Source of the DNA: an uncultured virus (IMG/VR IMGVR_UViG_3300045825_000547)
Lineage: Duplodnaviria; Heunggongvirae; Uroviricota; Caudoviricetes
DNA length: 55,116 nucleotides
Reading direction: 5' to 3' (one strand)
Virus record (IMG/VR): IMGVR_UViG_3300045825_000547
Position numbers and translations under genes: made by a program. The notes below the pieces were generated by a model. It did not search any database. It worked only from the letters and a program-made list of their open reading frames with translations, and had not been told where the DNA came from. Positions 1,768-50,336 of this stretch are shown piece by piece; the first letter of the stretch is position 1; each line of letters starts with the position of its first letter.

Positions 1768-1800
1768 ATAAGGAGGTCTTTCTTGGCATAAGAACTATGA
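1765..1800 (+). promoter_or_regulatory. Putative phage early promoter, copy 1
   Basis: TAAA-N15-TGGCATAAGAACTATGAAAG; same motif at 3596, 9623, 19881 and 31055, always upstream of a + strand gene. Confidence 0.7.
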
Positions 1801-3595: not shown

Positions 3596-3630
3596 TAAAT
3601 AAAGGGAGGTTTCTTGGCATAAGAACTATG
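3596..3630 (+). promoter_or_regulatory. Putative phage early promoter, copy 2
   Basis: TAAA-N15-TGGCATAAGAACTATGAAAG, near-identical to copy 1. Confidence 0.7.
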
Positions 3631-9622: not shown

Positions 9623-9660
9623 GAAATAACACGCCTTTTCTTGGCATAAGATAGTACAAA
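9623..9660 (+). promoter_or_regulatory. Putative phage early promoter, copy 3
   Basis: GAAA-N15-TGGCATAAGAT, followed by hairpin AAGAGA...TCTCTT and a T-tract. Confidence 0.65.
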
Positions 9661-17823: not shown

Positions 17824-18190
17824 GACTGACACAATTCCCTATGAAGGGTTATGGACAATGGCAAACACAAATGTGGCTGTTTGGGGGAAGATAACTGAGA
17901 AGCTGACGCAACCTAACTCGGTTCATGTGGTTGTGAATTTGCTATCGGGTCTGGTTAGATTCCACCCCCGAGGTTGGTGGCCCCGCTTCTTCAACATTCA
18001 TAACCTAGCCCCTTTTGGCACGGCAGAGATATTGGATAGAGAGATTTCTCCAACCTCCCACCCTTGGATCTTTGGGGAAGATGCTTGGCTATCTGTGCAA
18101 TCAGAGCTGCAACACATCTGGCTGCCTGATCCGGCTTGTGATGAGTGTAGGAGCTTTATTCAAGAAGAATGGCTGAGGAGGCACAGATGA
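17807..18190 (+). CDS. 'VW-family' protein (array member 15)
   Basis: AGGAGG SD; PYEGLWTM ... APFGTAEILD. Confidence 0.75.
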   Translation: MPRTPKTDTIPYEGLWTMANTNVAVWGKITEKLTQPNSVHVVVNLLSGLVRFHPRGWWPRFFNIHNLAPFGTAEILDREISPTSHPWIFGEDAWLSVQSELQHIWLPDPACDECRSFIQEEWLRRHR

Positions 18191-18588: not shown

Positions 18589-19021
18589 TGTTTGGTATTA
18601 CGATAAGGAACTATGCGCATTTACTATGGTTCCTAGCACCGAAATGGGAAGGTCTGGAACGAGATCCCGAAACAGCCTATACATGATTACGGCGTTTCCT
18701 CACCCAGAAGAAAAGCGTTTTATGTTTGACCACATCGGTAGCTATTCAGTTCTTCCTTCGTTCTATGGGTATAACGCAAGCCGATGCAAACCTGTACCGA
18801 TCCATCTGGCTGAACGATTAACCGAATGTGCTGTAGGGTATGACTATAAAATGTATCTGAAATACGACTCATTAGAAGGTTGTGGCGTAAATTACAGCGT
18901 TAGCCCAGGAGAGATAAATCCATTTCTTTATGATCTGGTACAGATAGAAGTGAAGAAGCATTACCAAGAGGAAATGAAACCAAGAAAGAAGGAGAACAAA
19001 CACAGCTATGGATATAAATGA
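18572..19021 (+). CDS. 'VW-family' protein (array member 17)
   Basis: QPPDVWYY ... VPIHLAERL. Confidence 0.8.
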   Translation: MKQPPDVWYYDKELCAFTMVPSTEMGRSGTRSRNSLYMITAFPHPEEKRFMFDHIGSYSVLPSFYGYNASRCKPVPIHLAERLTECAVGYDYKMYLKYDSLEGCGVNYSVSPGEINPFLYDLVQIEVKKHYQEEMKPRKKENKHSYGYK

Positions 19022-19367
19022 ATTAATAGACGGCCTTTGGTATACCGTGGGAAGTAACCCCTGGCGATGGGATCCTGCCTTCCTATACATCAAACAGGTC
19101 CCTGAGCAGGAATACATGAGTGTGTTCTTTTTCCTAACCGGGAGTGACTGTATCTATTCACTAGACGGAAACGAATCTATCAATAAAATGATTGATGTGT
19201 TCGTTGCTCCGTTTGCTGAGGCCGAGCTATGTCATAAATTAGCTAAACCTGATAGGCTATTCCCAAAGCATTGGCTACCCCATGAAGGGGAAAAGGAGAT
19301 GGAAGATCTACATAAGCTGAGAGGCTTATTCGAGGAGAGGAAAGCTAAAGCTTTGGCGGGAGGGTAA
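19008..19367 (+). CDS. 'VW-family' protein (array member 18)
   Basis: LIDGLWYT ... VAPFAEAELC. Confidence 0.8.
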   Translation: MDINELIDGLWYTVGSNPWRWDPAFLYIKQVPEQEYMSVFFFLTGSDCIYSLDGNESINKMIDVFVAPFAEAELCHKLAKPDRLFPKHWLPHEGEKEMEDLHKLRGLFEERKAKALAGG

Positions 19368-19420
19368 GGGGGGGAAAAACGGGTTAATATTTATGTATAT
19401 ACGCCGTTTTAAGGAGATTA

Positions 19421-19804
19421 TTGCTTGTGAGTAGAATAGCTTGGTATTTAGAAAAAAGTGCTGGGGCTGCTGGAGATTTGGGAGCAGCTGCTAATAGATT
19501 TAGCGAACATATAAGAGGGACAGGGAAAGCTAATGTGCCTAGCACCTACGGAGGACATAGCAGTGCAAAGAGCATAGGTGATGGTATGGGGTATATCCAT
19601 GCAGATAACAGCGTGACTTATGGTTCTCCACATGTAATGGCTACTAACCCTAGATTCCTGGAAGCACAAAAAACATTTAACCCTAAAAATAAAGAACAAG
19701 CTTTGGGTGCGGGGTTATCTGATGCCGCAGACCGCGTAATAGGTGCACCTAGAAAAATGCTAAAGAATGTCAATTTTGGAAGAAACCCGTTCAGCGGAGT
19801 ATAA
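19421..19804 (+). CDS. Small Gly/Ala-rich protein with 'RIAWYLEKSA' leader (putative head-internal protein)
   Basis: AAGGAG SD, TTG (or GTG 19427) start; leader matches 34354-34722. Confidence 0.65.
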   Translation: MLVSRIAWYLEKSAGAAGDLGAAANRFSEHIRGTGKANVPSTYGGHSSAKSIGDGMGYIHADNSVTYGSPHVMATNPRFLEAQKTFNPKNKEQALGAGLSDAADRVIGAPRKMLKNVNFGRNPFSGV

Positions 19805-19839
19805 CTTTATTCCCTAGCTCCTATATTTATATACAACAA

Positions 19840-19875
19840 AAAGACCCCCACTTCTGGAGGTCTTTCTTTTTAGCT
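19840..19875 (+). terminator. Intrinsic terminator
   Basis: AAAGACC-c-CCA[cttc]TGG-a-GGTCTTT then CTTTTTAGCT. Confidence 0.7.
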
Positions 19876-19880: not shown

Positions 19881-19915
19881 TTAATCTCGCCCCAATTCTT
19901 GGCATAAGATTATAG
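19881..19915 (+). promoter_or_regulatory. Putative phage early promoter, copy 4
   Basis: TTAA-N15-TGGCATAAGATTATAGG. Confidence 0.6.
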
Positions 19916-22505: not shown

Positions 22506-24299
22506 TTAGGTTATATACACAAACTGCCAGTCTCCTTTTATAAATTGTACGTTCCTATTAGTAATACCAAGAACTGAATTAAGCACTGGACGAACAAACT
22601 CACCACTAACTAAAGGAATTTCTTCCCCACCTGGCATTATCTGTGTCCCTCTCATATCTAAGCTCACGATAGCTTTAGCATTACTAACCACTTGGTAGAC
22701 TATCTCCATTATCTTGCTCCTTACTACCTGCCCCCCCGCAGTGAACATGTAGTTCTGGATAGCTGCGTTAAGTGAGTCATTAGTTCCAGTAAAGGCGGCA
22801 GCAGACGGCTCAAGAGCAATTTGGATAATTCCATCAACAAACACAGGGAACATGGTCTTAGCTAAGGTGTTAGAGTCCAACACTCTCTCTAAGTCTGCGT
22901 CCATCTCTTGTTGCACCGCTCTCACTATTGGACTACATACCACCTCTGCACTTATCGTTGTTCCTACTAACCCAGGGTTAACGAATAACTTAGTAGGGTC
23001 TTTGCCTGAGAACCTAAGAGACGATGAGTTAGGTTGGATATCAAAGTCAAAGAACAACACAGGTGCTGATTGCTCATCTACTATGTTATTCACTCTAAGC
23101 ACAGGCCCTATGTCATTAGGGAAACTTATAAAGCCTTGGTCTATCGGGTTAACAAACAACTTAACTGTTCTTGTCTCCGTAGGTGCTTTCAAGTACACAT
23201 CTGTCATGCTGCCTAAATGGATAAGTGCTTGTCCGCCTATCTCTTCTTCCCAGAACCCTATGTTTGCCCTGCTACCTAAGAACCCAACCACGGGGGTAGA
23301 GAACTGGGCAGTCATTTGCTCGTCTTGCACAAAGCCTAACGGATTCTCCACACTAGCTAATTCCACGTCTACTAGGAATGAGTAGTTATTAAGGATAGTG
23401 TTATGAAGCCAAGCAGGGGAAGACGCATTCACACTCATGGCTTGGCTAGGAACATATATAAGATCAGGACGACCTTTGTATAGGAATCTTGTAGTAGCGG
23501 GAACAATATTAACTACCGTGGGCGAAGCAAACACTAATCTGATTTGGTACTTAGGGATCTTAGTAATAACTAAGTCTCTCACCATTTCCGGCTCCCCCAT
23601 TCCCACATTAAGCACTTCGTTGAAAGAGCCTGGGAACTGTTGAAGCAAGAAAGCCTTTATGCTTCTATCGTTAATAAGGTTCCTCACACTTATCTGATGA
23701 CGACCCCTAGTATAGGCATCTATGTTAGACTCACTATTTCCTCCACCAGTCGCAAAGCTTACTAACGCTGCAGTAGCGCCAGGCGCAACATCAGTTGGTG
23801 CACTAACTCCTTCATACACATCATTCACTTCCCCAATAGTAGTTGAACGACAACTAACCAATATTGAATACTTATCTTTATATGGTGGGCTAGTCTCTTT
23901 AAAGTAGGAAGCAGGTGATACCTCTTGATCACTTATTGTGTAGAATGTGGTAGAGCCTATGATGAAAGGGGTGGATTGGTTTATCTTAAATGCTCTATCT
24001 GCTGTCTCAAATATGTACTTCACTGTTATAGTTTTGTAGCTACCTAAATTCCTATCTATGAAGTAGTTAGCAAGGAGCTCATCATATGCAGCAGTGGTAG
24101 TAGATGTGAAGAGCAAACTTCTGTTCTGCTTCACTTCAGCCTTAATAGCTATCATCTCTGGTATCTTATATAGCTTGGCAGTTCTCACGGTTATGTCATA
24201 TAATGGGTCGTTCTCTGCCAAAGCAAAATCAGGATGATAGAACTTCATCACTTCTTTGTAGAAGGTTTCCGCTTTGTTTAAGTCTACTTGGTTAACCAT
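22506..24299 (-). CDS. Baseplate J-like wedge protein
   Basis: ATGGGNSESNIDAYTR resembles the baseplate-J GGxxxEsD motif; adjacent to gp25-like gene. Confidence 0.65.
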   Translation of the reverse strand: MVNQVDLNKAETFYKEVMKFYHPDFALAENDPLYDITVRTAKLYKIPEMIAIKAEVKQNRSLLFTSTTTAAYDELLANYFIDRNLGSYKTITVKYIFETADRAFKINQSTPFIIGSTTFYTISDQEVSPASYFKETSPPYKDKYSILVSCRSTTIGEVNDVYEGVSAPTDVAPGATAALVSFATGGGNSESNIDAYTRGRHQISVRNLINDRSIKAFLLQQFPGSFNEVLNVGMGEPEMVRDLVITKIPKYQIRLVFASPTVVNIVPATTRFLYKGRPDLIYVPSQAMSVNASSPAWLHNTILNNYSFLVDVELASVENPLGFVQDEQMTAQFSTPVVGFLGSRANIGFWEEEIGGQALIHLGSMTDVYLKAPTETRTVKLFVNPIDQGFISFPNDIGPVLRVNNIVDEQSAPVLFFDFDIQPNSSSLRFSGKDPTKLFVNPGLVGTTISAEVVCSPIVRAVQQEMDADLERVLDSNTLAKTMFPVFVDGIIQIALEPSAAAFTGTNDSLNAAIQNYMFTAGGQVVRSKIMEIVYQVVSNAKAIVSLDMRGTQIMPGGEEIPLVSGEFVRPVLNSVLGITNRNVQFIKGDWQFVYIT

Positions 24300-31054: not shown

Positions 31055-31092
31055 TTAAAATCAAGCTGTTTTTTGGCATAAGATATATGAAA
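31055..31092 (+). promoter_or_regulatory. Putative phage early promoter, copy 5
   Basis: TTAA-N15-TGGCATAAGATATATGAAAG, followed by two hairpins and a GAGGAG SD. Confidence 0.65.
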
Positions 31093-31177: not shown

Positions 31178-32149
31178 ATGCAATTAATATCTTTGACCAA
31201 CGAACAAATAAGTAATGGACTTAGCGGTCCATTAAAATGGGAGTTGGTGTTAGGAGATCAACTTTCTAAAGATTTTGTTCAACATATCATTCCCAATTCT
31301 AAACAAGCGGAGGCGTACTTTTTAAAGTACAATGCCCTTCATATCCTTACAGACCGATGGGGTTTGCTATCTGATTGGGTTCCTGATAATCTTCTTCCAA
31401 AAACCACAGAATGCTGGGGTGGTTGGGTACAACTAAATGCTGATAGAAGAGCTATAGTAAAATATGTAGGGGGGTGGCATGATAGACAGATACAGGAGTT
31501 ATTTGATTTACAAATCCCCCTCCAGACTGATGTAATTCCCGAAATCAGGGATTTGCACCTGGTTGCGCAAGCTGGTGCATTGGGGTGGCCGGTAAAACTT
31601 TCACAAGAAGAACTCTATTGTGATTACCTAAAGGAGGAGGACACTCTACCTGCAGAGTTGATCCTTGAGGTTATGAATAAGAAAATTTATAGTAAGACTC
31701 GTGAAGGGTTCACCACTGTTACTCCTTTCCATAGATGGCTCAACAGTGAGCCTGTATGGGAGATCATAAAAACTAATAACAGAATAGAGGAATTTATTAA
31801 TAGATTTCAACACGAGTTATTAGAACGTTGCGCGTTTCTGTACAGAGAGTTACCGATACATCAGCTTCCTGGTCGTTTGGCACTCATCAGGGTTGGGTCT
31901 ATTCGTCATGTTGATAGGTACAACAACAAAGATTTTTATGGAATGAGGTTAGACTTAGCAACCCAAACTATAAGAATAGATGACGATGATTATGAGGATG
32001 TAATGTTATCCGACTCCCAAATGCAGACTGTTATGGAAGTGCTTCAACGCTTCGGGGAGATAGACTTCAATCACGATTGCCCTGACGAGGACAGCGACAT
32101 TGTGGAGTGTCTCACTGACCGCTTCAAGCCCTTAGTGACTGGGCAGTAA
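31178..32149 (+). CDS. Hypothetical protein (323 aa) in early cassette
   Basis: GAGGAG SD; flanked by promoter copy 5 and a terminator. Confidence 0.8.
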   Translation: MQLISLTNEQISNGLSGPLKWELVLGDQLSKDFVQHIIPNSKQAEAYFLKYNALHILTDRWGLLSDWVPDNLLPKTTECWGGWVQLNADRRAIVKYVGGWHDRQIQELFDLQIPLQTDVIPEIRDLHLVAQAGALGWPVKLSQEELYCDYLKEEDTLPAELILEVMNKKIYSKTREGFTTVTPFHRWLNSEPVWEIIKTNNRIEEFINRFQHELLERCAFLYRELPIHQLPGRLALIRVGSIRHVDRYNNKDFYGMRLDLATQTIRIDDDDYEDVMLSDSQMQTVMEVLQRFGEIDFNHDCPDEDSDIVECLTDRFKPLVTGQ

Positions 32150-34353: not shown

Positions 34354-34722
34354 TTACCTTCTTCTAGGATTTCTTCCCATTCTCTGTGGCGCATTAGCAT
34401 ATTCCTTGGTTATCTCTTTTTCTAAGCGTTGCGTGCCTGCTAAAGCATTAACCTCAGATCTGTTTATTAAGTGTCTCCTAGCAGCATAAGCTCCACCACC
34501 AAGCAAACCCATTCCAGCTGCGACACCCATCGCTTTAATTCCTTTCCCTCTTCTAAGTTGTGCAGATGCTGCTTGGGCTATGGTTGCTTGCCTAGCATCA
34601 TACAGGTATTTTCCCCCAACACCTAGTGCGCCTGCGCCTGCAACGGCAGCGGCTGCCGCAGGTAGCTGGCTTCCTTCTTCTCTTGCTGATTTTTCTAAAT
34701 ATCTTTCTATTCTTTCGTTCAT
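34354..34722 (-). CDS. Small Gly/Ala-rich protein with 'RIERYLEKSA' leader and two hydrophobic segments
   Basis: MNERIERYLEKSA; AAAAAVAGAGALGVGG and GVAAGMGLLGGGAYA. Confidence 0.7.
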   Translation of the reverse strand: MNERIERYLEKSAREEGSQLPAAAAAVAGAGALGVGGKYLYDARQATIAQAASAQLRRGKGIKAMGVAAGMGLLGGGAYAARRHLINRSEVNALAGTQRLEKEITKEYANAPQRMGRNPRRR

Positions 34723-34772: not shown

Positions 34773-36371
34773 TCACACAGCACTGAGCAGACTTCTAGTA
34801 GCCTCGATATGCTCCCTAACGATCTTGTCTATAGCTCCTTTCTGTTTACTAACGGCGGGAGCACTAATCTTCCATTTCTTTGCTATCTCTGCGTTACTGA
34901 GCACTGGTGAGTTGTTATAGCCATAAGATGATTTAAATATCTCTTGTTGCTTAGGGGTCATAGCGTCATAGGCTAAGTGAAGGGCTGTGTTGTCATGTGA
35001 GTACTCTTGCTTCACCACACTTCCTCCAGCTTCCGAATGTGCTCCATAGTAGTTCTCAATGATGGGCTTAAAGTCGCCTATTTTATTTCCCACCTTGAAA
35101 TGGCTTTGCAGCTCTTCTTTTGTTGCCTCGCGTCCTAGTATGTTCTCTAGATCATTCTTCTCAAGCATAAACTTTCTGTATTCAAACGTTTTGTTTTCTT
35201 GCACCCTTACAGCATTCTGGTTCTCTATGGCAAACCTATTCAATCTCTTTAGTGCATTAATCACATGGGTATTTAGTTGACTCTTCTTAGGGTCAAATGT
35301 CTTAATAGCCTCATAGGAATAAGAGCGAGCTTCGTTAACCAATACGTCCTTATGTATGCCTGTCTGTGTCCATTTGTTTGTCTCATTATGGATAAGTGGT
35401 GCAAGATGTGTCATGAGGGGGGAGAGCGTATCGGGTGATGGGTCTTTATGCCATGCGTGCCAGAGTTCCAAATCTTTCTCTGAGTTACTTGCTGCTTTCT
35501 CATGGTGGATGGCAGGGATATGACTCTTCACACTCATGTGTTCCGCATCTATCGGACTGTAATGGCGCCCAAACAAGTCAAGTGCGTGATTAATCTTCCC
35601 TAATGCTCCTGTAGCACCTGGAGCTGAGCTGTGGTTAGCTATGATAGATTTCTTAGCTCTCACTAGGTGGCCTATCTCGGTGAGGGAATTGTGGTAGTCC
35701 TCTTCTTTCCCTGTACTAACGGAAGTAGCGTGGGCATGGAGAGCTTTCCATAGTTGGGTTCTTTGGGTAGGGGTTGGGTAGTGATCACCTACAGCATCAT
35801 GAACTATTTGGTCCATCGGTCTGTTGTCTAAGTAGTCTGGAAACTGGTCGTAGCTCATTATTCCGTCACTAGACGCCACTTTGCTCATACTGACTAAAGG
35901 AACATTGCTTGGTTGCACTGCTTGTTTAATTAAATTCTTTGCTCTCTTTAGGTGGACAGCCAGGCTTGAGCTCATACTAGGGGTTAGGATATAGTGATGT
36001 GCGTTAGGTGTTGCATACTGGAGATGGGAGCTTCTAGCGCAGTTATCCATCTCGTTGATCAGACTAGCATTAAAGCCCAGTTTCTTCTCACAACCTATCA
36101 CCACGCTATACTGCGGTTTCATCTCTCTTATAAGGGAGCTAGCAGCTAAGCCGTGACAGATAAGGATAGGAGCATTTGGGTAATGGTTCCTTGTAGCAGT
36201 TCCCTCATAGAATGAGAGCAACCCAACTAGTCCAGCTTTACTAACTATTGTCATGATGTCTCTATAGAACCTATCAGCAGTGTTTTGCCCGGCGATGAAA
36301 TCTCTAGGCTCCATGACTACTAACACGTCTACTGACGTTCTGTCGCATGATTCCGGATTATCCATGTTCAT
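34773..36371 (-). CDS. Sigma70-family (group 3, FliA/WhiG-like) sigma factor with long N-terminal extension
   Basis: Region 2-like ELWHAWHKD...LMTHLAPLI...EAIKTFDPKKSQLNTHV; region 3-like LENILGREATKEEL; region 4 HTH MTPKQQEIFKSSYG...SNAEIAKKWKISAPAVSKQ. Confidence 0.8.
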   Translation of the reverse strand: MNMDNPESCDRTSVDVLVVMEPRDFIAGQNTADRFYRDIMTIVSKAGLVGLLSFYEGTATRNHYPNAPILICHGLAASSLIREMKPQYSVVIGCEKKLGFNASLINEMDNCARSSHLQYATPNAHHYILTPSMSSSLAVHLKRAKNLIKQAVQPSNVPLVSMSKVASSDGIMSYDQFPDYLDNRPMDQIVHDAVGDHYPTPTQRTQLWKALHAHATSVSTGKEEDYHNSLTEIGHLVRAKKSIIANHSSAPGATGALGKINHALDLFGRHYSPIDAEHMSVKSHIPAIHHEKAASNSEKDLELWHAWHKDPSPDTLSPLMTHLAPLIHNETNKWTQTGIHKDVLVNEARSYSYEAIKTFDPKKSQLNTHVINALKRLNRFAIENQNAVRVQENKTFEYRKFMLEKNDLENILGREATKEELQSHFKVGNKIGDFKPIIENYYGAHSEAGGSVVKQEYSHDNTALHLAYDAMTPKQQEIFKSSYGYNNSPVLSNAEIAKKWKISAPAVSKQKGAIDKIVREHIEATRSLLSAV

Positions 36372-36381
36372 ATTTGTTCTC

Positions 36382-39300
36382 CTAGCCCTGTGAGGCTGTT
36401 CTGCTTCTTACAATATATCTCACTTTCTGGATGTAGTTAGCTATGTACTTATCCCATTCAATCTTACTTCTATCTTCTACTTTCTTAGCTTTCTCTTTAG
36501 CTAAGTCTGCTGGTGGTGTAGCTTCTGCGTTTCCTGTGGTCATGTCTATAGTCTCAGGGAAATCAAAGTTATTCCATGGAGCAAACACTAAGCTAGGTGC
36601 TTGTTGATAGTACGCGCCATAGATCCCTCTCACGGAGCTAGGCACATTGGTGTACTGAATTGCTTGTATCTTTCTGTAGTTAAGCTCAAGTGCCCCTCTG
36701 TAGTCAGGGAGGTCTGCGATGGTAAAACCTAGTATATCAGCACTCTCCTGCTTAGCTTGTTCCCACATGTTGCAGCCCAACACCTTCTGGTATGTTTTGT
36801 CTAATTGCCACACGTTGTTCACATTATCCCACTCATTGTCCCACTCCCCTGTGAAGAAAGGAATACCGCTCTTCCCACTACCTGCCACTCCATCTGTCAT
36901 CGGAATACTTCCCACTGCATCTATAGGACCTAGTGCTATAGGGTTTCCTGCTTTATCCACTTTGCCTGTGTGGTAAACCATCTCATCTAGGGACGATTCA
37001 TCTGCCCTTCTTACATACCCGCAGGTGATTTGGGTGGTTACAGACTCAGGGGTTATTACGTCATCTGCGCTGATTATGAAGCAACGAAGGTGTGTGGGAC
37101 GGAAGCCTCGTTCAAGTGTATCAAGGATCATTCCAGAGTAGCCAGGAGCTATGTATGGGTTGAACTCTGACTGAAGCGTAACGGTGGAGGATTCATAACG
37201 GAGCTTGTAGAAGGTGTAGTCGCAGATAGGCTCTATGTATCGAGCGTTCAAATCTTTATACCTAAGCTTCCTTTTCTCTATCGTTTCGTTAGGTTCAGCT
37301 TTAGTTTTAGCGTCCTGTGATTCTGATGTAGCTTCCGGGTCTTTCCCTCCGGTAGTCAGGGCGTCAGATGCGAGAGTGGTGGAGAGGAAATCCGCTAGGT
37401 CTCGTAACGTGCTTCTGTTTGCTTTCTTTGCAGCATCTATAGCTTTCTTTGCATCCTTTGCTGGCTTATACAACCCGTCGTAATAATCCACAAATAAGGT
37501 GAACAAAGATATTATGTTACTACCGTCCCCACCAAAAGCTTTTTTAAGATTTACTATTATTTTTGCGGGGGTCTCGGGGTCTGTCTTCAACGAATCAGCC
37601 ACAATTTTTAGTATAGCGTCTAGGTCTTTGTCGTTTAGTCTGATAGCCGCCACTAGCATTCCAAGGAGAATGACAAAGTTCATATGTGGTCGTGCAGCAT
37701 CGTTTTCACCTAATGAGAAAAACGAGCTAAGTGCTCCACCCTTTTTGATTGCAGCATCTATTTTTTTCTTAAAACTCTTCATAAGCTTTTCATATCTGCC
37801 AATTAAATCTATGTATGTGAGATTAGCTGATGCTATCAAACTTCTCCCATCGCTTCTAGTAAATAGGTAAGAAAGCATGGCACGGATGTCGTGGTAGGTT
37901 GTTTTAAGAGGAGGAGCAGTATCAACTAGAGTTTTCAATACGGCGTCCATCGCTAGTTGTGTTGGGTTTGAAAATGCACCGTATTGTCCGGGGATGTCAT
38001 CTATAACAGTGTCGGGTGAGCTACTTTTATCACTCTTCTTTAACACCTCTATCGATCTCTTAGCTACCTCGTCTGGTTCAGCGCCAGGCTTAAGCTTCAC
38101 GGAGCGCTCGATAGAGTATTCAGTTTGTTTTGTGTCTGTCTTCTTTGGTGTTAGATCCTTTGCCGCCTTAGTGATCTTTGATTGATCCACCACCTTTTTC
38201 TCTTTAACCGCAAAAGCTGCTGTGAATCTTTTATTAGTCTCTTCAATAAGCTTAGGCTTGAACTCAACCGCCTTCGCCACCACCTTATTCACCATCTCCT
38301 CGTAGGCAGTCTGCACTCTGCCCCCCGCAGGTATTTTATCGCCCAGTTCATCATACACACCTTTTATAGCACCGCCTTGTCCTGTAGCCAGTTTCATCTC
38401 ACACATCTCTGTGATAATTGCTACAAGCTTTGCAGCTAACTCAATGGATTCAGTTTGTGAGTCCATGTAGATGGCTATAGCTGTGTGGGAGTATCCACTA
38501 ATACATCCCTGTTCAAGGGTATATGTAGCGGATAAATCTGCATCCGCTTTTGCAACATTATTAAATAAGGCCTTAGTCCCCACTTCCGGGAATTCCTTTC
38601 CAATAAAAGGTAGTATCATGGCCGATTTTACTGGAGGCCCTGCTGCATACACTGTCTTATCGATATTGAATCTCACAGCTAGTGGAAGAACGTGATAGGC
38701 TTCTTCAAAAATATGGAAATGTCTCCCCCTCTTCACCGTGAGAGTCGCCTCCCCATTCTGTGTAGAGATAACATAGTTAGCGTTACGCTCCGCAAACTTA
38801 AAGGAATCTTTAATAATATATATTCTTAATGGTCGCATCTTTGGTACATTAGGGTTAATAGACACAGCACTTCCAGTCTTATACTCCCCCTCTCCTGGCT
38901 TGGTAGCGTCCCAATTAGTATATGTTTCAATATTCATCAAGTACTCGTGCATACATTTCTTTGCAAACACTTTCTCATAAGCTGTCTTATCTACTATGAA
39001 GTCTTCTGTGATCCCTATACTAGTAGAGGTGGGAGTGGTTCCGCCAGTGTTAGAGGCTACACCAATCGCATATGTATTGCCGGTAGTTCCGGTATTGGTA
39101 CTAGGGTCATTGTTATAGATAAGGGAAATAGCTGCAGACAAGAAAGCAGGTACTTCATTATAGCTCTCAACTATTCCTCTAATCTTCTCTTCGTCTGTGG
39201 TGAGGTCTGCAGGTTTTGTTTTATCCAATTGATATGCTTTAAACTTCTCTCTAAGCACGGGAGGAGAAACAGTTCTCATAAATTCACGGAGAATCTTACT

Positions 39301-40299
39301 GTTTAGGCCTGTACTGGGTTGAGTTATTTGGGTCAAGCGGGTAGGCTTTTGATCCCAAGGCTCGAAGTATGGGAGAGAAGTTAGCATGATCGGGAATATG
39401 ATATTGCACTCAGGGGGAGGCTGAAACACATTATCTGGCTTAAGAACCAAGCTATTATGGTAATCAGGTGGGTCGGCTGCAATGGTTACATCATGGAGGA
39501 ACAATTGACTCATTAAGTTAATCATTTGCAAGTAACTAACTCTGCTTCCTCCTACCTTAGGCAAGAGCTCGATGAACGTATATTGCATGATAAGGTAATA
39601 GATTGTATCCCATTTCATATGCACCGCGGTGTCTTTATCTTTACTAAACAGTCTGTCTGCTAACCCGTAAGCCACGGTAGCTTTAATTGGCCAAGCTTCT
39701 TTAGTAACACTCTTCTGTGCTTCCTCTAGGAATACCTGTAAACTACCTTTCACGAAATCATATATATCTAATGCGGTCATAGGCTGCTTACCAGTTTTGG
39801 CAGCTATTTCCTTAGGTGATAGTTTCTCGAATATTGTTCCAGAAAGGACTGGTGCGAGATTCTCATTCTCCGCAGTTCTTCCTGATATCTCCTCTTCCAG
39901 GTAAGAAGCAGGGTCAAGCGCGGTGAGGGTGAGTCCATCTAGGTTACTTAACACATGCCTAACCATAAACTGGTAGTTCTTTTGGTCAGGTGTTCTTACG
40001 AAGCCTGGGTTAGTGAGTTCTCCCTCAAACAGCACTACGATAGCGGGGGTGACCGCGGGTGTAGGGTCTCTCATAAGCAACACCACTTTAGCTCGGGGCT
40101 TTATATCTTTAGGTGAGAATATTCTATTATCTGCTAGTTCTACTTCCACAGCAGGAATCATCACAGTGAGGTTAGGGAGATCTCCCCTACATCCTCTGTG
40201 TCGCTGAATGGTTGTAAACGGACATCTTTGCCCCTCTATATATAGAGCAAAGTTCTCCATAGAGATTGCAGTTACTGTGTTGTGTACATTGTCGCCCAT
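36382..40299 (-). CDS. Baseplate hub (gp27/gpD-like) candidate with large central insertion
   Basis: 1305 aa; N-terminal LYIEG...VLFEGE and C-terminal FNPYIAPG segments typical of large-phage hubs; downstream of tape measure. Confidence 0.5.
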   Translation of the reverse strand: MGDNVHNTVTAISMENFALYIEGQRCPFTTIQRHRGCRGDLPNLTVMIPAVEVELADNRIFSPKDIKPRAKVVLLMRDPTPAVTPAIVVLFEGELTNPGFVRTPDQKNYQFMVRHVLSNLDGLTLTALDPASYLEEEISGRTAENENLAPVLSGTIFEKLSPKEIAAKTGKQPMTALDIYDFVKGSLQVFLEEAQKSVTKEAWPIKATVAYGLADRLFSKDKDTAVHMKWDTIYYLIMQYTFIELLPKVGGSRVSYLQMINLMSQLFLHDVTIAADPPDYHNSLVLKPDNVFQPPPECNIIFPIMLTSLPYFEPWDQKPTRLTQITQPSTGLNSKILREFMRTVSPPVLREKFKAYQLDKTKPADLTTDEEKIRGIVESYNEVPAFLSAAISLIYNNDPSTNTGTTGNTYAIGVASNTGGTTPTSTSIGITEDFIVDKTAYEKVFAKKCMHEYLMNIETYTNWDATKPGEGEYKTGSAVSINPNVPKMRPLRIYIIKDSFKFAERNANYVISTQNGEATLTVKRGRHFHIFEEAYHVLPLAVRFNIDKTVYAAGPPVKSAMILPFIGKEFPEVGTKALFNNVAKADADLSATYTLEQGCISGYSHTAIAIYMDSQTESIELAAKLVAIITEMCEMKLATGQGGAIKGVYDELGDKIPAGGRVQTAYEEMVNKVVAKAVEFKPKLIEETNKRFTAAFAVKEKKVVDQSKITKAAKDLTPKKTDTKQTEYSIERSVKLKPGAEPDEVAKRSIEVLKKSDKSSSPDTVIDDIPGQYGAFSNPTQLAMDAVLKTLVDTAPPLKTTYHDIRAMLSYLFTRSDGRSLIASANLTYIDLIGRYEKLMKSFKKKIDAAIKKGGALSSFFSLGENDAARPHMNFVILLGMLVAAIRLNDKDLDAILKIVADSLKTDPETPAKIIVNLKKAFGGDGSNIISLFTLFVDYYDGLYKPAKDAKKAIDAAKKANRSTLRDLADFLSTTLASDALTTGGKDPEATSESQDAKTKAEPNETIEKRKLRYKDLNARYIEPICDYTFYKLRYESSTVTLQSEFNPYIAPGYSGMILDTLERGFRPTHLRCFIISADDVITPESVTTQITCGYVRRADESSLDEMVYHTGKVDKAGNPIALGPIDAVGSIPMTDGVAGSGKSGIPFFTGEWDNEWDNVNNVWQLDKTYQKVLGCNMWEQAKQESADILGFTIADLPDYRGALELNYRKIQAIQYTNVPSSVRGIYGAYYQQAPSLVFAPWNNFDFPETIDMTTGNAEATPPADLAKEKAKKVEDRSKIEWDKYIANYIQKVRYIVRSRTASQG

Positions 40300-40569: not shown

Positions 40570-42699
40570 TTATTTCTTCTTTGTTATGTTCTTAATCGGA
40601 GCTACTATTTGTGTGTCACCAATCTGGTGAATCTCTTGCGTTCCTATCTTAGCATTTGAGTCAGGAGCACCCGCGGTCTTTGAACTTTTTTTACTATCTA
40701 CCGAAAGCATAGAAAGCATAGAGTTAAGATACGCAGTAGTTCCATCATTTATAGATAGGTTTATATTAGACCAAGAAGTCCAGTCTTTCACGAAGAACTG
40801 CATAGAGAATGTACTAATCGATTCACTCTCATCTGCATGGGAGAGACTCAAGGCCACAGGATAACAATCCACAGTAAGTCTTATCGCAGGGAGAGCTATT
40901 CTAAGGAACTGACCATGCTCAACCAGTTTGCTTATTCTTAGGTAGTGCTTCCACGCCTCTCTGAATTTAGTAAGCCAGTTGTTAAGACTGTCGTTGATTA
41001 GCTGCCCCTGAATAGTCCAGAACTCTGGTTTCTCACCAAAGCTGAAGAGAGCTTGTCCTGAGGAAATAGTGTCTGTTAACTGGAACTTCTCGCTATGGGT
41101 TTCATCTAATCTCTTAATAAAGAACTGGTTGTATATCGCACCACTGCCGAAAGGGTTCTTAAGGGTAGGTTGTTCTTTACCAGAGTTTATGAATTCTGCA
41201 GGCTTAGCAGTGAGGGGATCATTCATTAATCTAAAATATGAGGAGGTGTGTCCAGAGGTGAAGAAAGGTTTTACCATCTGCACAGCTCTGAAGTCTATAG
41301 GATCTTCTACGAATAGCTGAGTAGGGTTGGTAGTATCTAGTGCGAAATACCTTTTGCTCACAGGGTCATCGAAGGTTAGTTTAAGGCCTAAGTCTAACAC
41401 TTTAGGTGAGTCATCAAACACAGAAGAATCTATTTCAACTTTAGGGGCAGCCCCATCTGTAGTGGAGGTCGTTCCTGTTATCTTGGCAGTACCAACCTCG
41501 CTGGCCTTTAAGTTATTTGACCCATTTTCGTTCTCTAATAGATTAGCAACTTCTTGGTTATTTGTCGCAGGGGTTACAACCGTTTTTCCCTTTAGCTGCA
41601 ATTCTAGTGCCGCTATTTTCTCTTGGGCATCTTTCTTTGTAGCCTCCGATTGTTTATATGCCTTGGTAGTTACATTGCCGTTTGAGAGTTGCATAGCAGT
41701 GTCTGCATCTACAATAATTTGCTTTTGTGTATTTATCTGTGCTTGTATCTGTTCTGGGTCAGTAGTTGTCTTTGCCTTGTCGGGTATCTCACTCTTTACT
41801 TGAGACTCTTTAGTAGATTTTACTAACTGGGAATAGCCGTAAACCTTAGCATCAGGGCTGTCATTATAGTTTTTGACTATATTTGCGACAATCTTACCAA
41901 TATCCTTTTTAGGGGTAGTAGCAGGAATAGGCGCACCTAAGCATATACCTGTTAAGTTATCCACATAACCTTTAGCCATTGTTGCATGATCTGGGGTTTC
42001 CCTATCTGGTGTAAACCCTGCTGCTATGAGGTTGTTATAGAGACTAGCGTATTTTTCTTTAGCTTCTACTCTATCTTTTGCTGAGAAGCTTGTAAGTTCT
42101 GCCCTATTAGCAATAACATAGTAGTAAGCTATGTTTTCAGTTTCATTCCCTAGGGAACTGATAGGCTCTGCAGCTTGTGAAGCGGGGGGAGGAGCATTAG
42201 TTTTTATGGCATCCACCAAAGCTTGGTACGCATGAAAGTCGCTCTGTATAGTATCCACAGCAGTTTGTTGCATACTATCGGATATCACACTAGTTATTGG
42301 TTTATTCCCACATTGTCTGGCTAAATAGAGAGCATCAACAGTGTTGCTGTCTCCAGGCTTTGTGTGCCAGAAAGTAAACACGGTGGATAGTTGGATATAC
42401 CCAAAGAACACATTACGATAGGTTAGATCATCGGAAGTGGGGGCCTGCATAATATACTGGGAAATAAAGGTATGGAGCTGCCCACGTAATTCGGGGCCTG
42501 CTTTGGTTAGCAGCTCATCTTCTTTCTGTTTATACATTGTCCCAAAGGTATGTACAGATACCTTTTCAGGTTCTATGTCAACCTCTTGTGCCCCGTTTTT
42601 TCTTTTGGTTATTGCGTTGTTATAGGCAGTAAGCATGTCTGCAGCGATACTGAGTAGGTCTTCTAGTCCTTTCTCTAATTCATCTTGTGTTATTGTCAT
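40570..42699 (-). CDS. Tail-tube-initiator/distal-tail-like protein
   Basis: C-terminal beta-rich EKFQL...FGEKP..W.IQG.L...FSMQF segment; directly after tape measure. Confidence 0.45.
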   Translation of the reverse strand: MTITQDELEKGLEDLLSIAADMLTAYNNAITKRKNGAQEVDIEPEKVSVHTFGTMYKQKEDELLTKAGPELRGQLHTFISQYIMQAPTSDDLTYRNVFFGYIQLSTVFTFWHTKPGDSNTVDALYLARQCGNKPITSVISDSMQQTAVDTIQSDFHAYQALVDAIKTNAPPPASQAAEPISSLGNETENIAYYYVIANRAELTSFSAKDRVEAKEKYASLYNNLIAAGFTPDRETPDHATMAKGYVDNLTGICLGAPIPATTPKKDIGKIVANIVKNYNDSPDAKVYGYSQLVKSTKESQVKSEIPDKAKTTTDPEQIQAQINTQKQIIVDADTAMQLSNGNVTTKAYKQSEATKKDAQEKIAALELQLKGKTVVTPATNNQEVANLLENENGSNNLKASEVGTAKITGTTSTTDGAAPKVEIDSSVFDDSPKVLDLGLKLTFDDPVSKRYFALDTTNPTQLFVEDPIDFRAVQMVKPFFTSGHTSSYFRLMNDPLTAKPAEFINSGKEQPTLKNPFGSGAIYNQFFIKRLDETHSEKFQLTDTISSGQALFSFGEKPEFWTIQGQLINDSLNNWLTKFREAWKHYLRISKLVEHGQFLRIALPAIRLTVDCYPVALSLSHADESESISTFSMQFFVKDWTSWSNINLSINDGTTAYLNSMLSMLSVDSKKSSKTAGAPDSNAKIGTQEIHQIGDTQIVAPIKNITKKK

Positions 42700-42718: not shown

Positions 42719-45700
42719 TTAGGGATCCTTCTTTTTAGCTTCTTTAGGTGGTGGTGGGACAACAAGGGCGGCAGTGTCTTTTTTACCCTTCTTCCCTGCT
42801 AGCGTGTCCGCCGCATCATTAAGTTTAGTCGCCACAGTATCAAAGCTTTTCATAAACTGTTCTCTAAAGTCATTCAGGCTCTTTGGTACACTTGCCACGC
42901 TTGTGCTTATAGAAGAGGTGAGCTCCATCATCTCATGCACGTCTTTAGCGGACTGCGCAAAACCCGCTCTCACTTCTGCTGTTAAGAACTTTCCTCCGCC
43001 TTTAGGGTCAATAACCATTTGGTCACCACCACTTCCGTAGAGAGGGGAGATAGCACCACCTGTTCTAGCTTGAGCAGAATGCACGTATTTTCCATCTTTA
43101 TCTGTGGCCGTGAGTTTACTGTATTCTTCATCAGCCTCTTTAGCTGTGTACCCCTGCTTCACCATGTTTGATGTGTAGGTGGCACGACCATCCAATTTGT
43201 TTCCGTCTTTGTCTACAGAGCCTTCGTAATTCTTAGGGTCTAACATAAGTTTCACTAAGTTCATAGCGTCTCCACCTTTGGCGTCTTTAGGAATAGCCGT
43301 GATGTAACCCTTCATGACTTTCGTGAATTCCTCGTCAGTCATATTGGTTGTGCGGGCTTCGTTGAGTTTCTTTATTAGTTCTTCATTCCCTTTATCCCCT
43401 ATAGCTGCTAGATATGCACCGTAGTTCTCTGAGGAAATACGAGAAGAAATGGTTGCGTGATCTTTGGCAAGGCCTGCATATCCTTTTATTGTCTCTAAAA
43501 GTGCGGAGGTTTCCCCTAGGCCCAGTTTTCCTACCTTATTCATTTGGTCCTGTGTGCCAGGTGTTTGTAAAGAAACACTTCGATCAAATATTAGGTTACG
43601 AGTAGATTCTGAGAGTTTAGCCGTAGACCCTCCATCCTTGTTCTGCGCTTCTTCTATTTCTTTGTACAAAGGATCTCCTGGGTGCATTTTGCCCAAAACT
43701 TGTCCATAGGTTTTATCTCCTTGTTTATACTTGCTGGAAACTTTATCCGACACTGCTGCGTTTAGTTTCAAAGATAGCCCCGGAACCCAGCCGGATATTG
43801 TCTCTGACCAGCTATTACCTACCCTAGCTTCATGTAGTGTTTCAACATACCCAGAGTTTTCTTTCCAATTAGTCCCTCTTTCCCTCGCAGGGTCTACGTA
43901 ATTGCTAAGAAGCTGTGCTTGGACCGCTTCTACACGCTCTGCGCTCATATCATCGTTCCCAGAGTCTGTTTTCACAACTTTACGCATTAAAGTTCCCCAA
44001 GTGGTACGAGCATCATAGTACTTGTCATCAAGTTCTTTAATTTTTTCTTCTTGGATCCTCTTCGGGGTATTATCTGCGAGCGTAGAATATACTTTTGTTA
44101 CTTCGTCTTTCTGTGGTCCGGCAGGCATCGCAGCTATCATAGCACCAGGTACTAATCTATTAGGGGAGGTTGGGTCATTCTGTATTAATCTCATGTCGTC
44201 CATAGTCATTTTGGGGTCTCTGAATGCAATCTGAGAAAGATTTAGCAGGCCCTCCTCAAAGTTTTTTGTCTTGAACCCTCCCCCCTCTTCGTCAAACTTA
44301 AACCCTTTGTAAATTGAGTCCATGAGTTCGTGCTTTTCTGGTTCAGGTATAGCCATACGAGCATTTACTCTTGCGGCGACTTCTTTTGTATTCATGCCTG
44401 TCTCTATACCAGAAGATAGGTTTTCTAGCATATCCCCTTTATTCATTAATAGCTTCTTGGCGTCTTCTCGTTCAGTATCCGATGTCATAGAGAATGCTAA
44501 TTGAGACATAGCGGCGCTAGTGGCTATGCCCGGTTTATTGGATTTACGTAAATTTAATCTAGCCTCCAATTCCTCCGTGACATCCTCCTTTATCCTTGTG
44601 TCTATAGTCTTGTCTGGTGTCGCCGAGCCTCTATTTTTCTTTTCCTCGTCTATCATATCCGCAACTGCACTAGCACTCTTAATCCCTCCTTCCATTTTGC
44701 TTCTATGGAATGTGTGGGAATTCTCTGGGTGGATTAATTTTCCTACTATCCCGTGCTCTAACCATTCTTCCCAGCCGCCGATTCTTTCCATACTATTACC
44801 AGACCAATTAGCTATGGCAGGGTCTAGCCAATATTCCATTTGTTTCTGCATCATCAGTTTAGGGTTGGTGAATATGTTAGCAGGTGGTCTCCATACTTCT
44901 ATTTGCTTTTGTTGGAAGGAGTTCTTCAAGCTTTCTTCCATACTAGCTCCGATCTTATCAGCGTTCTCTACTTGGTGCATCAATACTCTTGAATCATCGG
45001 GACTAACACCCATTCTGGTTAATTGGTTTTGAAGGTCTCCTGCGCTGATTTTTCTTCCCATAGTAGATGACATGGAATTAGCTAAGGCACTAAGTTGCCC
45101 CATCGCTACCACGTTAGGGTTCATATCTTTGGAATACTCGGGGAGTTTATACATCAATGTTGAGTAGGTGGAAGGATCCATATTAAGAACGTTGCTAGAA
45201 AGCAAGCCTGCTACCCCACCTTTTCCTGCTACCATATCTTTCTCAAAACCTGGACTTCTGAGCGCACCCATCATGAACGCCGTACCGAGTGGAGTAGAAG
45301 TGAGAGTAGCTAATCCCCTTGTTTGGGAATTACTCATACCAGTTTGTCCACCGTAGTAGGCAGAATCTTCCACGCTCATTGCACCACTTCTAATGGCTTC
45401 TCCAGCTCTTCCGATAGATTGAGCATGAACCATTGTTCCGACTCTAGGTGCATAACCCATTCCAGAGTAGAGAGGGCTTCCACCAGCACTAGCTTCAAGC
45501 ATGTTGTGCATTGTCATGTTGCCAGAGAAAGCGTAGGCAGAAACACCACCTAAGAAACGTGCATTAGTTCCCACGTTATTAGATGGGTTAATTCCTATCT
45601 GTGTTAGTAGGCCCAAGTCCCCCTGCATATTCTTAAGTTGAATACCTACAGCAGTCATAGCCTTAACCGTGTTGGAAATATTCTTAAGTGCGGCTAAGGT

Positions 45701-46576
45701 ATCGTCTGCGTTTTTATTACTTGCGAAGAGGTTAAGTTCAGTTCCTGTTTGGAGAAGGAGCTGGTAATCATCCCTCATGAGGTAGTCATCGTTAGCTACC
45801 TGTTTCCCAAAGCCTCTTTGGAACTCTGCAGCTTTGTGGGCTGATGCTCCTCCGCCTAATTTATCTCTATATACGGAAGCAGTGGCATCTCTATAGTAAC
45901 GGCCAATGTCCATGTACTTTTCTCTAGCGTTAAACCCGTAGTCTGTTAGTTGCCCTAATGCTAAAGCGCCTATCGCAGCAGGTGCAGCAAAAGGCATAGC
46001 TAAGCTTCCTGCAGCTATTCCCCCTGCGAGTGTGAGCGCGTTGGTTCCAAATTTCTGAGCACCCGTAACAGCTGTGTCTATGCTTTCTGCAAACTTCTCC
46101 ACAAACATTTGGTTAGCTCTGTAGGTAGGAACATTAAGGTTTCCTCCCCCACTGATCCCTAAGAAGCCTGCATTTGGGAAGTAGTTCTGAACAAAGTTGC
46201 CCATGCTACTACCAACCATACTTCTAACGCCATAGTCCATTACGCCTGAAGCTATGTTAGGAATGGTACGGCGCGCCCCTTCCGGACCTATAGGAACTCC
46301 TGCTAAATATCCTTGTGGGGTTGTTATGTTTCCAAGCCCCATGTGCTGGAAGGGATTGCCCATCCCCATGCTCATAGGTGTGCTCATAGCTCCGAGAACG
46401 GAGCTACTTGCTTGTGAGTTTTGCATCATGGCTGCTTGAGCCATTGCACTTACGGGACTAAGCCCCATGCTGCCACTTTGCATGGCAGAATTCATGGCAA
46501 TCATTTGGGCTTGTTGTGCGGCCATAGTCAGGTCAGACGAATCTACCTGTAGTTTTACGCTGTATGTATCATCCAT
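42719..46576 (-). CDS. Tape measure protein (candidate)
   Basis: 1285 aa; Ala/Gly/Met-rich helical, hydrophobic stretch near aa 180-210; preceded by two chaperone-sized genes. Confidence 0.6.
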   Translation of the reverse strand: MDDTYSVKLQVDSSDLTMAAQQAQMIAMNSAMQSGSMGLSPVSAMAQAAMMQNSQASSSVLGAMSTPMSMGMGNPFQHMGLGNITTPQGYLAGVPIGPEGARRTIPNIASGVMDYGVRSMVGSSMGNFVQNYFPNAGFLGISGGGNLNVPTYRANQMFVEKFAESIDTAVTGAQKFGTNALTLAGGIAAGSLAMPFAAPAAIGALALGQLTDYGFNAREKYMDIGRYYRDATASVYRDKLGGGASAHKAAEFQRGFGKQVANDDYLMRDDYQLLLQTGTELNLFASNKNADDTLAALKNISNTVKAMTAVGIQLKNMQGDLGLLTQIGINPSNNVGTNARFLGGVSAYAFSGNMTMHNMLEASAGGSPLYSGMGYAPRVGTMVHAQSIGRAGEAIRSGAMSVEDSAYYGGQTGMSNSQTRGLATLTSTPLGTAFMMGALRSPGFEKDMVAGKGGVAGLLSSNVLNMDPSTYSTLMYKLPEYSKDMNPNVVAMGQLSALANSMSSTMGRKISAGDLQNQLTRMGVSPDDSRVLMHQVENADKIGASMEESLKNSFQQKQIEVWRPPANIFTNPKLMMQKQMEYWLDPAIANWSGNSMERIGGWEEWLEHGIVGKLIHPENSHTFHRSKMEGGIKSASAVADMIDEEKKNRGSATPDKTIDTRIKEDVTEELEARLNLRKSNKPGIATSAAMSQLAFSMTSDTEREDAKKLLMNKGDMLENLSSGIETGMNTKEVAARVNARMAIPEPEKHELMDSIYKGFKFDEEGGGFKTKNFEEGLLNLSQIAFRDPKMTMDDMRLIQNDPTSPNRLVPGAMIAAMPAGPQKDEVTKVYSTLADNTPKRIQEEKIKELDDKYYDARTTWGTLMRKVVKTDSGNDDMSAERVEAVQAQLLSNYVDPARERGTNWKENSGYVETLHEARVGNSWSETISGWVPGLSLKLNAAVSDKVSSKYKQGDKTYGQVLGKMHPGDPLYKEIEEAQNKDGGSTAKLSESTRNLIFDRSVSLQTPGTQDQMNKVGKLGLGETSALLETIKGYAGLAKDHATISSRISSENYGAYLAAIGDKGNEELIKKLNEARTTNMTDEEFTKVMKGYITAIPKDAKGGDAMNLVKLMLDPKNYEGSVDKDGNKLDGRATYTSNMVKQGYTAKEADEEYSKLTATDKDGKYVHSAQARTGGAISPLYGSGGDQMVIDPKGGGKFLTAEVRAGFAQSAKDVHEMMELTSSISTSVASVPKSLNDFREQFMKSFDTVATKLNDAADTLAGKKGKKDTAALVVPPPPKEAKKKDP

Positions 46577-50255: not shown

Positions 50256-50336
50256 TCTATCCTTCTAATTTTAGCCTATTATCGGCTTGTCAAGAAATAG
50301 TGAGCCGGTATAATTGAGAGAGACGGGAGGAATTAA

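Follow-up and report, generated by a model that had tools for sequence, protein, structure and literature searches.

To our knowledge, the phages known so far follow one of two ways: they carry a polymerase without a sigma factor (N4, phiKZ and crAss-like phages), or they encode sigma factors that take over the host enzyme, for which T4 gp55 and SPO1 gp28, both using the host core, are the textbook cases. In this study, we analysed a 532-codon sigma factor gene in a stretch of 55,116 nucleotides (nt) from an uncultured wetland phage (Caudoviricetes; IMG/VR record IMGVR_UViG_3300045825_000547), and the whole stretch is called the window below. The gene belongs to the same family as gp10 of Salmonella phage Arash, is located in a block of virion genes, and encodes 290 residues ahead of the point where the free-standing relatives begin.

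Removal of an N-terminal part by a protease before a sigma factor works is known from pro-sigmaE and pro-sigmaK of Bacillus subtilis, whose prosequences of ~20-30 residues are removed by membrane proteases dedicated to this task and serve to time a programme of the cell. The window protein is similar in that a sigma-70-family factor carries an N-terminal part ahead of the sigma core, and the SpoIVFB:pro-sigmaK complex (8vjl_B) is among its fold matches. However, its extension is a folded part of 290 amino acids (aa) with two domains, a head protease of the phage is presumed to make the cut, and the arrangement would serve delivery in the particle. No Pfam family of a SpoIIGA- or SpoIVFB-type protease was found among the 74 proteins of the window that were scanned. 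PhyR of Alphaproteobacteria also has a receiver and a sigma-type domain in one chain; its receiver is phosphorylated on Asp and controls a sigma-like part that does not bind polymerase. In contrast, the window protein has the reversed domain order and no such Asp, and its sigma part looks complete. T4 internal proteins and Alt carry a capsid-targeting leader, which is cut by gp21 at the motif (L/I)-x-E. Two small window proteins with a YLEKSA leader resemble them in having a short N-terminal leader common to unrelated proteins, with a candidate protease site at its end, but the T4 cargo is not a transcription factor and the T4 motif is different.

According to passages on SPN3US, its head protease cuts the N-terminal propeptides of many internal head proteins at a motif of three residues, A-X-E, of which the propeptides contain several copies (PMC10052503), and the multisubunit polymerase of phiKZ and SPN3US is described there as carried in the head and ejected (PMC10052503; PMC7824862). 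As far as these passages describe them, the polymerases are highly diverged and split, and the cleavage motif has an acidic P1 residue, unlike the Lys-x-Ala (K-x-A) motif considered here. In the relevant part of a jumbo-phage review, the phiKZ-group phages with polymerase have no sigma and the sigma-encoding groups have no polymerase (PMC7824862). The clade of the window phage is unlike these groups, since polymerase and sigma are found together.

The closest described protein is Arash Gp10. From the record and the consulted parts of its paper (OQ632216; PMC10585845), it is of the same family, has the same place in the virion block, and occurs with a near-identical promoter-like motif (TGGTATAAG vs TGGCATAAG in the window). 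It differs in being a free-standing protein of 234 aa without extension or K-x-A. Gp10 is the only studied member of the family, and the Arash paper gives it only as an entry of the particle proteome. Our literature search on packaged, virion or injected sigma factors gave only reovirus sigma-1 papers; otherwise the Arash table and one sentence were found. The original prediction for this gene was not aware of any described case, but the Arash paper already lists a sigma among the particle proteins. A paper on a 'moraphage' was rejected as precedent, being of another lineage and without polymerase.

A sigma factor of the Gp10 family in a conserved virion-gene block

The C-terminal 237 residues are almost certainly a genuine sigma-70-type factor with sigma2, sigma3 and sigma4 domains, as judged from the fold and from weak profile matches. 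Pfam gave no family on the sigma open reading frame (ORF) even at E<=1. The PHROGs family phrog_351 'RNA polymerase sigma factor' matched aa 279-520 (E 3.2e-6), and the general sigma-70 model TIGR02937 of NCBIfam matched aa 318-511 (E 3.5e-10) with 39.8 bits, which is below its cut-off of 42.9 bits. AlphaFold2 modelling with 118 family sequences gave a mean predicted local distance difference test score (pLDDT) of 76, and mostly >90 across aa 296-531. Foldseek against the PDB returned sigma chains in all of the best 50 rows, with 6lts_F as the best (E 6.4e-7). Using VIA-align, sigmaB of S. aureus (8x6g_H) was matched with Z 13.3 over 200 of 244 residues, showing sigma3 between sigma2 and sigma4 as in the group-3 layout. 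The sigma2 fold (regions 1.2-2.4) matched sigmaA domain 2 (4x8k_A: Z 11.4, root-mean-square deviation (rmsd) 1.9 A, 90 aa) and 5h6x_B (Z 11.7, rmsd 2.5 A), and the helix-turn-helix of sigma4 matched sigmaE region 4 on -35 DNA (2h27_D: Z 10.2, rmsd 2.2 A, 69 aa) and 6ono_B (Z 9.1, rmsd 1.9 A). T4 gp55 was also among the fold matches (7d7d_F, Z 10.5). These results agree with the original prediction, which had placed sigma70 regions 2, 3 and 4 in the C-terminal ~235 aa and proposed AlphaFold modelling of this part. Its label 'FliA/WhiG-like' is not supported: the string 'DLELW...LMTHLAPLI' is found at aa 300-327, but the FliA/WhiG (sigma-28) model PRK07670 reached 17.6 bits against a cut-off of 326 and covered aa 295-364 only.

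A search of 1.84 billion cluster representatives revealed a family of 1073 representatives at E<=1e-3 (399 at E<=1e-10), almost wholly uncultured, and among the matches listed nearly all rows start at query residue ~295. For the comparison, 151 family sequences were analysed, with the C-terminal fragment P0012 excluded. The 'DLELW' helix is preceded by <=12 residues in 65 of them, by 13-45 in 41, and by >45, up to ~540, in 45. The N-terminal part of the window protein itself is common to only four homologues (P0002-P0005). Among 50,697 phage records, the family is present in Arash and in Vibrio phages D69, D148 and D181, weakly in Microcystis phage MaAM05, and in no others; a DNA search with the gene against the same records gave zero matches. 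Arash Gp10 showed 31% identity over aa 283-468 (phmmer E 2.5e-20; tblastn E 1e-13). In IMG/VR, the single-protein locus search found no relative and the search with the 118-row alignment found no conserved stretch, and a 12-row alignment gave 26 loci of relatives. The Gp10-type sigma is a signature gene of a large, mostly uncultured phage clade of ~100-210 kb, which has its own bacterial-type RNA polymerase. In one record of 205 kb (G005, loci L010-L012), the ORFs are far shorter than in the other relatives (sigma called with 79 aa, beta frame with 603 aa), and this may reflect another genetic code or many frameshifts.

The sigma ORF is the penultimate gene of the minus-strand block 50255->34354. 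Its AGGAG overlaps the TAG of the preceding 1305-codon gene, so both genes read as one unit. The place near the end of the minus-strand operon, beside a protein with the YLEKSA leader (the 122-aa neighbour with MNERIERYLEKSA), had been noticed before and is confirmed. In the ORF maps of the 26 IMG/VR loci, sigma is preceded by one or two proteins of ~750-1270 aa and followed by a small protein, and a baseplate-wedge protein (phrog_6) is found 2-3 genes past sigma in 3 of the 4 loci scanned. The 1305-aa window protein has weak similarity (phmmer E 6e-5 to 3.6e-4) to the large protein directly 5' of sigma in four of the loci (L008, L030, L029, L006). Arash, Vibrio phage D69 and the IMG/VR loci share one gene order, from the large protein through sigma and a small protein to the baseplate genes; in Arash, gp10 belongs to a group of 'structural protein' genes and comes after gp8, a cell-wall hydrolase of 1165 aa (annotation OQ632216). 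It means that the place of this sigma inside the virion-gene block is old and conserved. The window shares few proteins with Arash, and the pairs are 709 aa with gp6, 597 aa with gp13, 651 aa (50337-52292) with gp14, and 383 aa with gp238. On the whole, what had been observed earlier was partly confirmed: the sigma, its odd location and its extension are real, but parts of the labels and of the motif claims were not upheld.

Mass spectrometry of Arash particles from a sucrose gradient identified the sigma Gp10 with 24 unique peptides, 467 spectra and 100% coverage, as given in the text passages and Table 2 of that paper (PMC10585845). The same source gives 128 unique peptides and 3516 spectra for polymerase Gp206, 40 and 1210 for polymerase Gp216, and 38 and 1148 for the SNF2-type helicase Gp217, and the second sigma of Arash, Gp196, is in neither those passages nor that table of particle proteins (PMC10585845). 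From this proteome of a relative and from the conserved synteny, we consider it probable that the sigma is packaged in the particle of the window phage, so this claim of the original prediction is supported indirectly.

The sigma domains are free of cysteine (Cys) in 139 of the 151 family sequences (Cys frequency 0.0004), and the long extensions in 34 of 45. In the window, five proteins, of 1285, 418 and 367 aa and both leader proteins (122 and 127 aa), have zero Cys, compared with 1.0% overall. Such scarcity is consistent with a constraint on particle-borne proteins. The 1285-aa protein (42719-46576, minus strand) has no PHROG or Pfam match.

The extension and the junction motif

The N-terminal domain of the window protein, modelled as an alpha/beta fold at aa 16-151, matched receivers in VIA-align with Z 9-10 and rmsd 2.4-3.0 A over ~105 residues, for example 6zxc_A (Z 10.1, rmsd 2.4 A, 109 aa). 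The phospho-acceptor Asp expected at the end of strand 3 is absent: strand 69-73 runs into C72-H73-G74, which is invariant in the four homologues, so the domain is a pseudo-receiver. For residues 1-290, a word-index-limited search found no free-standing short homologues, the protein atlas gave only weak receiver-like structure rows (TM <0.5), and a metagenome scan with patterns of the N-terminal domain revealed no relative. Docking of residues 1-290 against 296-532 scored 0.00, which is no answer and counts as evidence neither way.

The segment EKAAS (291-295) is at the end of the stretch 271-292 with pLDDT <50, at the domain boundary, and the position of K292 (nt 35496-35498) before the sigma domain was as predicted. 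The junction K-A-A is retained in P0002-P0004, and P0005 has K-S-A. Within the family, 48 of the 86 extended members with room have a K-x-A starting 5-22 residues before DLELW, whereas shuffling each extension 1000 times gave 12.6 on average and at most 23. Per position, K-x-A is most frequent at the junction (0.034), compared with 0.009 in the part upstream of it and 0.004 within sigma. The junction logo reads [L/I/M]-[E/K]-K-x-A-[A/S/T], in which K and A, but not M, are conserved. The 45 long extensions make up 33 clusters that show no BLASTP similarity to each other, and 17 of the 33 have the junction motif.

The related pattern [LIVMF][ED]K.A is abundant in Arash, with 27 sites against 8.4 expected from within-protein shuffles. 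Six proteins of gp218-gp225, encoded directly before the capsid gene, account for fifteen of them, compared with an expectation of 0.6. Among these six is gp222, whose residues 67-210 match a head-maturation protease (phrog_18299, E 2e-6) and whose motif sites follow just after this domain. In the same Arash region (locus L004, 142.7-150.2 kb), gp223 has the near-repeat 'LEKAAAVN' twice. In a relative of 183 kb (G004), the pattern occurs 17 times against 4.1 expected. Several of its proteins have the pattern close to their N-terminus, among them the sigma (MGLLLRAFEKRATG) and a 382-aa protein that is scaffold-like. The original prediction had also said that the motif marks the putative head-internal proteins of the window, and this could not be confirmed in that form: 6 sites of the pattern were found window-wide against 2.9 expected, and the head genes lie outside the window. 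The YLEKSA leader is common to two otherwise unrelated small proteins of the window (MNERIERYLEKSA and MLVSRIAWYLEKSA); they were rejected as paralogues, for the BLASTP alignment covers the 10-residue leader only.

The distribution of the motif follows the pattern of T4 and of SPN3US, in which propeptides of head proteins are cut at a short recurring motif. Judged from sequence, cleavage at the junction EKAAS as an exposed head-protease site is plausible, and that the sigma is cut near residue 293 is a fair guess that we would doubt slightly more than believe. The candidate cut site is indirectly favoured by the family-wide K-x-A, the predicted disorder of the linker, and the clustering of the motif at the head protease of Arash.

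Promoter-like motif, polymerase and other features of the window

Five exact copies of TGGCATAAG are present in the window, all on the plus strand and all intergenic, against ~0.4 expected from base composition, and the distance to the next called start codon is 77-104 nt. The five promoter sites proposed earlier are therefore there, but with one mismatch allowed the count is 16 against 16.1 expected, which is chance. In each of two one-gene units (1784-2240 and 3615-4140), a TGGCATAAG site is followed by a small ORF, of 105 and 129 aa, respectively, and then by a hairpin terminator, at ~2211 and ~4115. Both terminators have the form ggaacca...tggttcc with the T-run TTCTTTTTAG, and the upstream regions are alike (gtaaataa...ggaggt). 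These units look like strongly expressed first genes. The 10-mers around TTCTTTTTAG had been considered as a second promoter, but proved to be these hairpin terminators.

Outside the window, the motif recurs in the form TGG(C/T)ATAAG in Arash and five relatives. In Arash, the most repeated 10-mers are GGTATAAGTA and its neighbours. TGGTATAAG has 18 copies, all on the minus strand, and GGTATAAG has 30 on the minus strand and a single one on the plus strand. An extended -10 of host type (TGnTATAAT) was rejected as explanation of TGGTATAAG, since G outnumbers T at the last base (18 to 2) and TG is followed by G in every case. For five relatives, TGGNATAAG was counted on the forward and reverse strands, with 9 (eight being TGGCATAAG) and 2 copies in G006, 7 and 0 in G007, 1 and 16 in G001, 3 and 15 in G003, and 3 and 9 in Vibrio phage D69; the reversed patterns used as controls gave 0-3 copies. 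In all seven genomes (window, Arash and the five relatives), the motif-rich strand is opposite to the sigma block and is the strand of the non-structural genes. In G007, a second strong sigma gene at 104847-105706 (plus strand; TIGR02937 E 1e-40) starts ~190 nt after a TGGAATAAG site, which hints at a sigma cascade.

All 5 large relatives encode the polymerase beta subunit (PF00562, E 1e-36 to 1e-70), and beta' (PF00623) was found in 5 of 5 records, Arash gp206 included. Often, a single open frame of 2040-2108 aa covers the beta domain together with the catalytic portion of beta' (relatives G001 and G004; loci L032, L033, L039 and L040). Arash gp206 (1525 aa) holds both beta and beta' domains, and gp216 has a later beta' domain (PF04998). 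We think it likely that the sigma works with a phage-encoded polymerase.

The coordinates of the features are shown in Table 1. PHROGs and Pfam on 23 large ORFs of the window gave as sole match an M23 peptidase (PF01551, E 3.7e-28) in the open-ended ORF 54545-55114 (plus strand), which runs off the window and resembles tape-measure/tail-lysin proteins of PHROGs. For another 51 ORFs, the Pfam search returned DUF7296 and, below threshold, STPR, and nothing else. The region 136-19804 (plus strand) has ~40 closely packed small ORFs, whose only family match is DUF7296 (8241-8768), and these ORFs are rich in Cys relative to the minus-strand block. A near-consensus host-type promoter (TTGTCA, 16 nt, TATAAT; 11/12) is located at 50287-50314 (plus strand), in the 81-bp gap between divergent genes of 733 aa (minus) and 651 aa (plus).

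Table 1. Coordinates of the sigma gene, its parts, neighbouring genes and promoter-like sites in the window
Feature	Position	Strand	Remarks
Full-length ORF, N-terminal extension and sigma	34773..36371	-	Real by ORF reading of the window; full-length homologues P0002 93%, P0003 42%, P0004 41%
Sigma factor proper, aa 296-532	34776..35486	-	sigma2 ~296-385, sigma3 ~392-445, sigma4 ~455-527; Cys-free
Predicted disordered linker, aa 271-295	35487..35561	-	pLDDT <50 at 271-292; ends with E291-K-A-A-S295 (nt 35487-35501), candidate cut site
Helical domain, aa 206-268	35568..35756	-	Conserved GKI(N/D)HALD; AlphaFold2 model and alignment
Linker, aa 153-199, mostly low confidence	35775..35915	-	Contains K164-V-A; pLDDT <50 at 153-183 and 194-199; unconserved in homologues
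Receiver-like (CheY-fold) pseudo-domain, aa 13-152	35916..36335	-	Conserved APILICHG, no acceptor Asp; AlphaFold2 model, VIA-align, homologue alignment
AGGAG ribosome-binding site	36379..36383	-	7 nt 5' of ATG; overlaps TAG stop of the upstream 1305-aa gene
1305-aa gene immediately upstream	36382..40299	-	Weak homologue of the large protein preceding sigma in relatives
122-aa Cys-free, glycine-rich protein	34354..34722	-	N-terminal leader MNERIERYLEKSA; adjoins the sigma gene
127-aa Cys-free protein	19421..19804	+	Leader MLVSRIAWYLEKSA, same as in the 122-aa protein; rest of sequence unrelated
709-aa protein	40570..42699	-	Homologue of Arash virion protein gp6; phmmer E 8e-7; Arash annotation
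597-aa protein	22506..24299	-	Homologue of Arash gp13, baseplate-wedge-like in relatives; protein comparison
TGGCATAAG site	1784..1792	+	77 nt before gene 1861-2178
TGGCATAAG site	3615..3623	+	Before gene 3693-4082
TGGCATAAG site	9642..9650	+	Before gene 9738-10040
TGGCATAAG site	19900..19908	+	Just past terminator ~19830-19873
TGGCATAAG site	31074..31082	+	Before gene 31178-32149

Proposed mechanism and alternatives

The best explanation as a whole, in which our confidence is evenly balanced, is a late packaged Gp10-type sigma, probably trimmed, which serves a co-packaged phage polymerase. The sigma would be made late from the virion-gene block and loaded into the particle. It would be a 532-aa precursor, with the pseudo-receiver and the helical domain (aa 1-270) followed by the disordered linker, and the head-maturation protease would probably cut at or beside E-K-A-A-S (K292). 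Such a cut would free a sigma of ~240 aa, which is the size of the free-standing family members. After injection, the sigma would most likely give promoter specificity to the phage's own co-packaged polymerase, and the TGG(C/T)ATAAG promoters of the non-structural genes would fire without new protein synthesis. In its fullest form, the head would build a ready transcription machine: a capped precursor, inactive in the cell late in infection, would be cut between K and A of E-K-A-A-S in the prohead and join the co-packaged polymerase, and the injected holoenzyme would read TGG(C/T)ATAAG. This form is speculative and we rather doubt it.

Several points weigh against this explanation. In the consulted parts of the Arash paper, 116 of 272 proteins are scored as virion proteins, including primase and ribonucleotide reductase, and the authors themselves allow for lysate carry-over (PMC10585845). 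Such carry-over is likely and the purity of the preparation is doubtful. Arash Gp10 has neither extension nor K-x-A, yet it is present in the particle preparation, so packaging does not need the extension. The published tryptic data of Arash cannot show a cut after K because trypsin itself cuts after Lys. Neither beta or beta' nor a head-protease family was found among the 74 proteins scanned in the 55-kb window. The extension of the window protein has 4 Cys and its sigma part none, which hints that the extension of this subfamily is outside the Cys constraint. K-x-A motifs were earlier said to divide the extension, and they do occur at K149, K164 and K292, but the protein holds 5 against 3.6 expected (P=0.28), which is chance level, and KQA(149) and KVAS(164) are unconserved in homologues of 41-45% identity. 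Across the homologues, 38 of the 86 extended members lack the junction K-x-A. Furthermore, the junction segment may be inherited along with the sigma domain, and some 'extended' members may be over-long ORF calls, as a Met is often near the junction. As for the promoters, the sigma and the motif occur together in seven genomes, but G004 (67% GC), whose Gp10-type sigma shares the QLNTHV helix, has only one copy of the motif. G001, G003 and G007 have further, stronger sigma genes (TIGR02937 E 1e-33 to 1e-40) and Arash has Gp196, and these other sigma factors could read the promoters instead.

The original prediction saw a packaged pro-sigma that is trimmed in the head and, once injected, turns the polymerase core of the host to the TGGCATAAG promoters. 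The complete bacterial-type sigma2-sigma3-sigma4 layout, the match to T4 gp55 and the lack of a polymerase gene in the window would suit a host core. However, the host core is the least likely part of that reading because the five large relatives and Arash encode their own beta and beta', and the largest numbers of spectra in the Arash particle preparation came from its polymerase proteins. In addition, the motif is retained in phages that infect different hosts (those of Salmonella and Vibrio, and uncultured environmental ones), which fits a phage-borne enzyme with its factor. With the host core, that model is very unlikely; of the original interpretation, the packaging, the cut site and the promoter link are supported indirectly, but the host core and the absence of a described case are not.

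It is also unlikely, though less so, that the sigma is an unpackaged middle or late factor inside the cell, which is regulated in cis by the receiver-like domain as in PhyR or as by a fused anti-sigma, with K-x-A incidental and the gene merely in a late operon. The receiver fold, the conservation over full length in four homologues, the Cys of the N-terminal domain (invariant C72 among them, unlike the Cys-free sigma part), the chance level of K-x-A in the window protein and the unclean Arash proteome speak for it. Conservation of the virion-block placement across very distant phages, the detection of Arash Gp10 but not Gp196 in the listed proteins, C-H-G in place of the acceptor Asp, and a junction motif that is family-wide and common to head proteins argue in the other direction. 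The sigma could also be packaged uncut, with the extension as a permanent anchoring or loading domain, or a free sigma could arise from an internal start at M279. Most other extensions are Cys-free, as if staying in the particle, a Met is often close to the junction (M279 here, MMK in P0003 and P0004), and Gp10 of Arash needs no propeptide. But there is no good ribosome-binding site before M279, the residues kept at the junction are K and A rather than M, and disorder and exposure are predicted for the linker, so we find this possibility quite improbable.

If the packaged and trimmed sigma is real, it would be the first case in which a sigma-70-family factor is a component of the virion and, at the same time, a zymogen-like substrate of a protease. 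The family points to a third way beside the two known ones, in which a bacterial-type polymerase and its sigma are delivered together in the particle, and a very large phage clade that is almost unstudied would use it. With the extended form, a further level of control is possible, namely the activation of sigma by a capsid protease, with K292 as a concrete site that can be tested. Since Arash grows on a laboratory strain of Salmonella, the central claims are directly testable. The conserved TGG(C/T)ATAAG also provides a handle for the early genes in hundreds of uncultured genomes.

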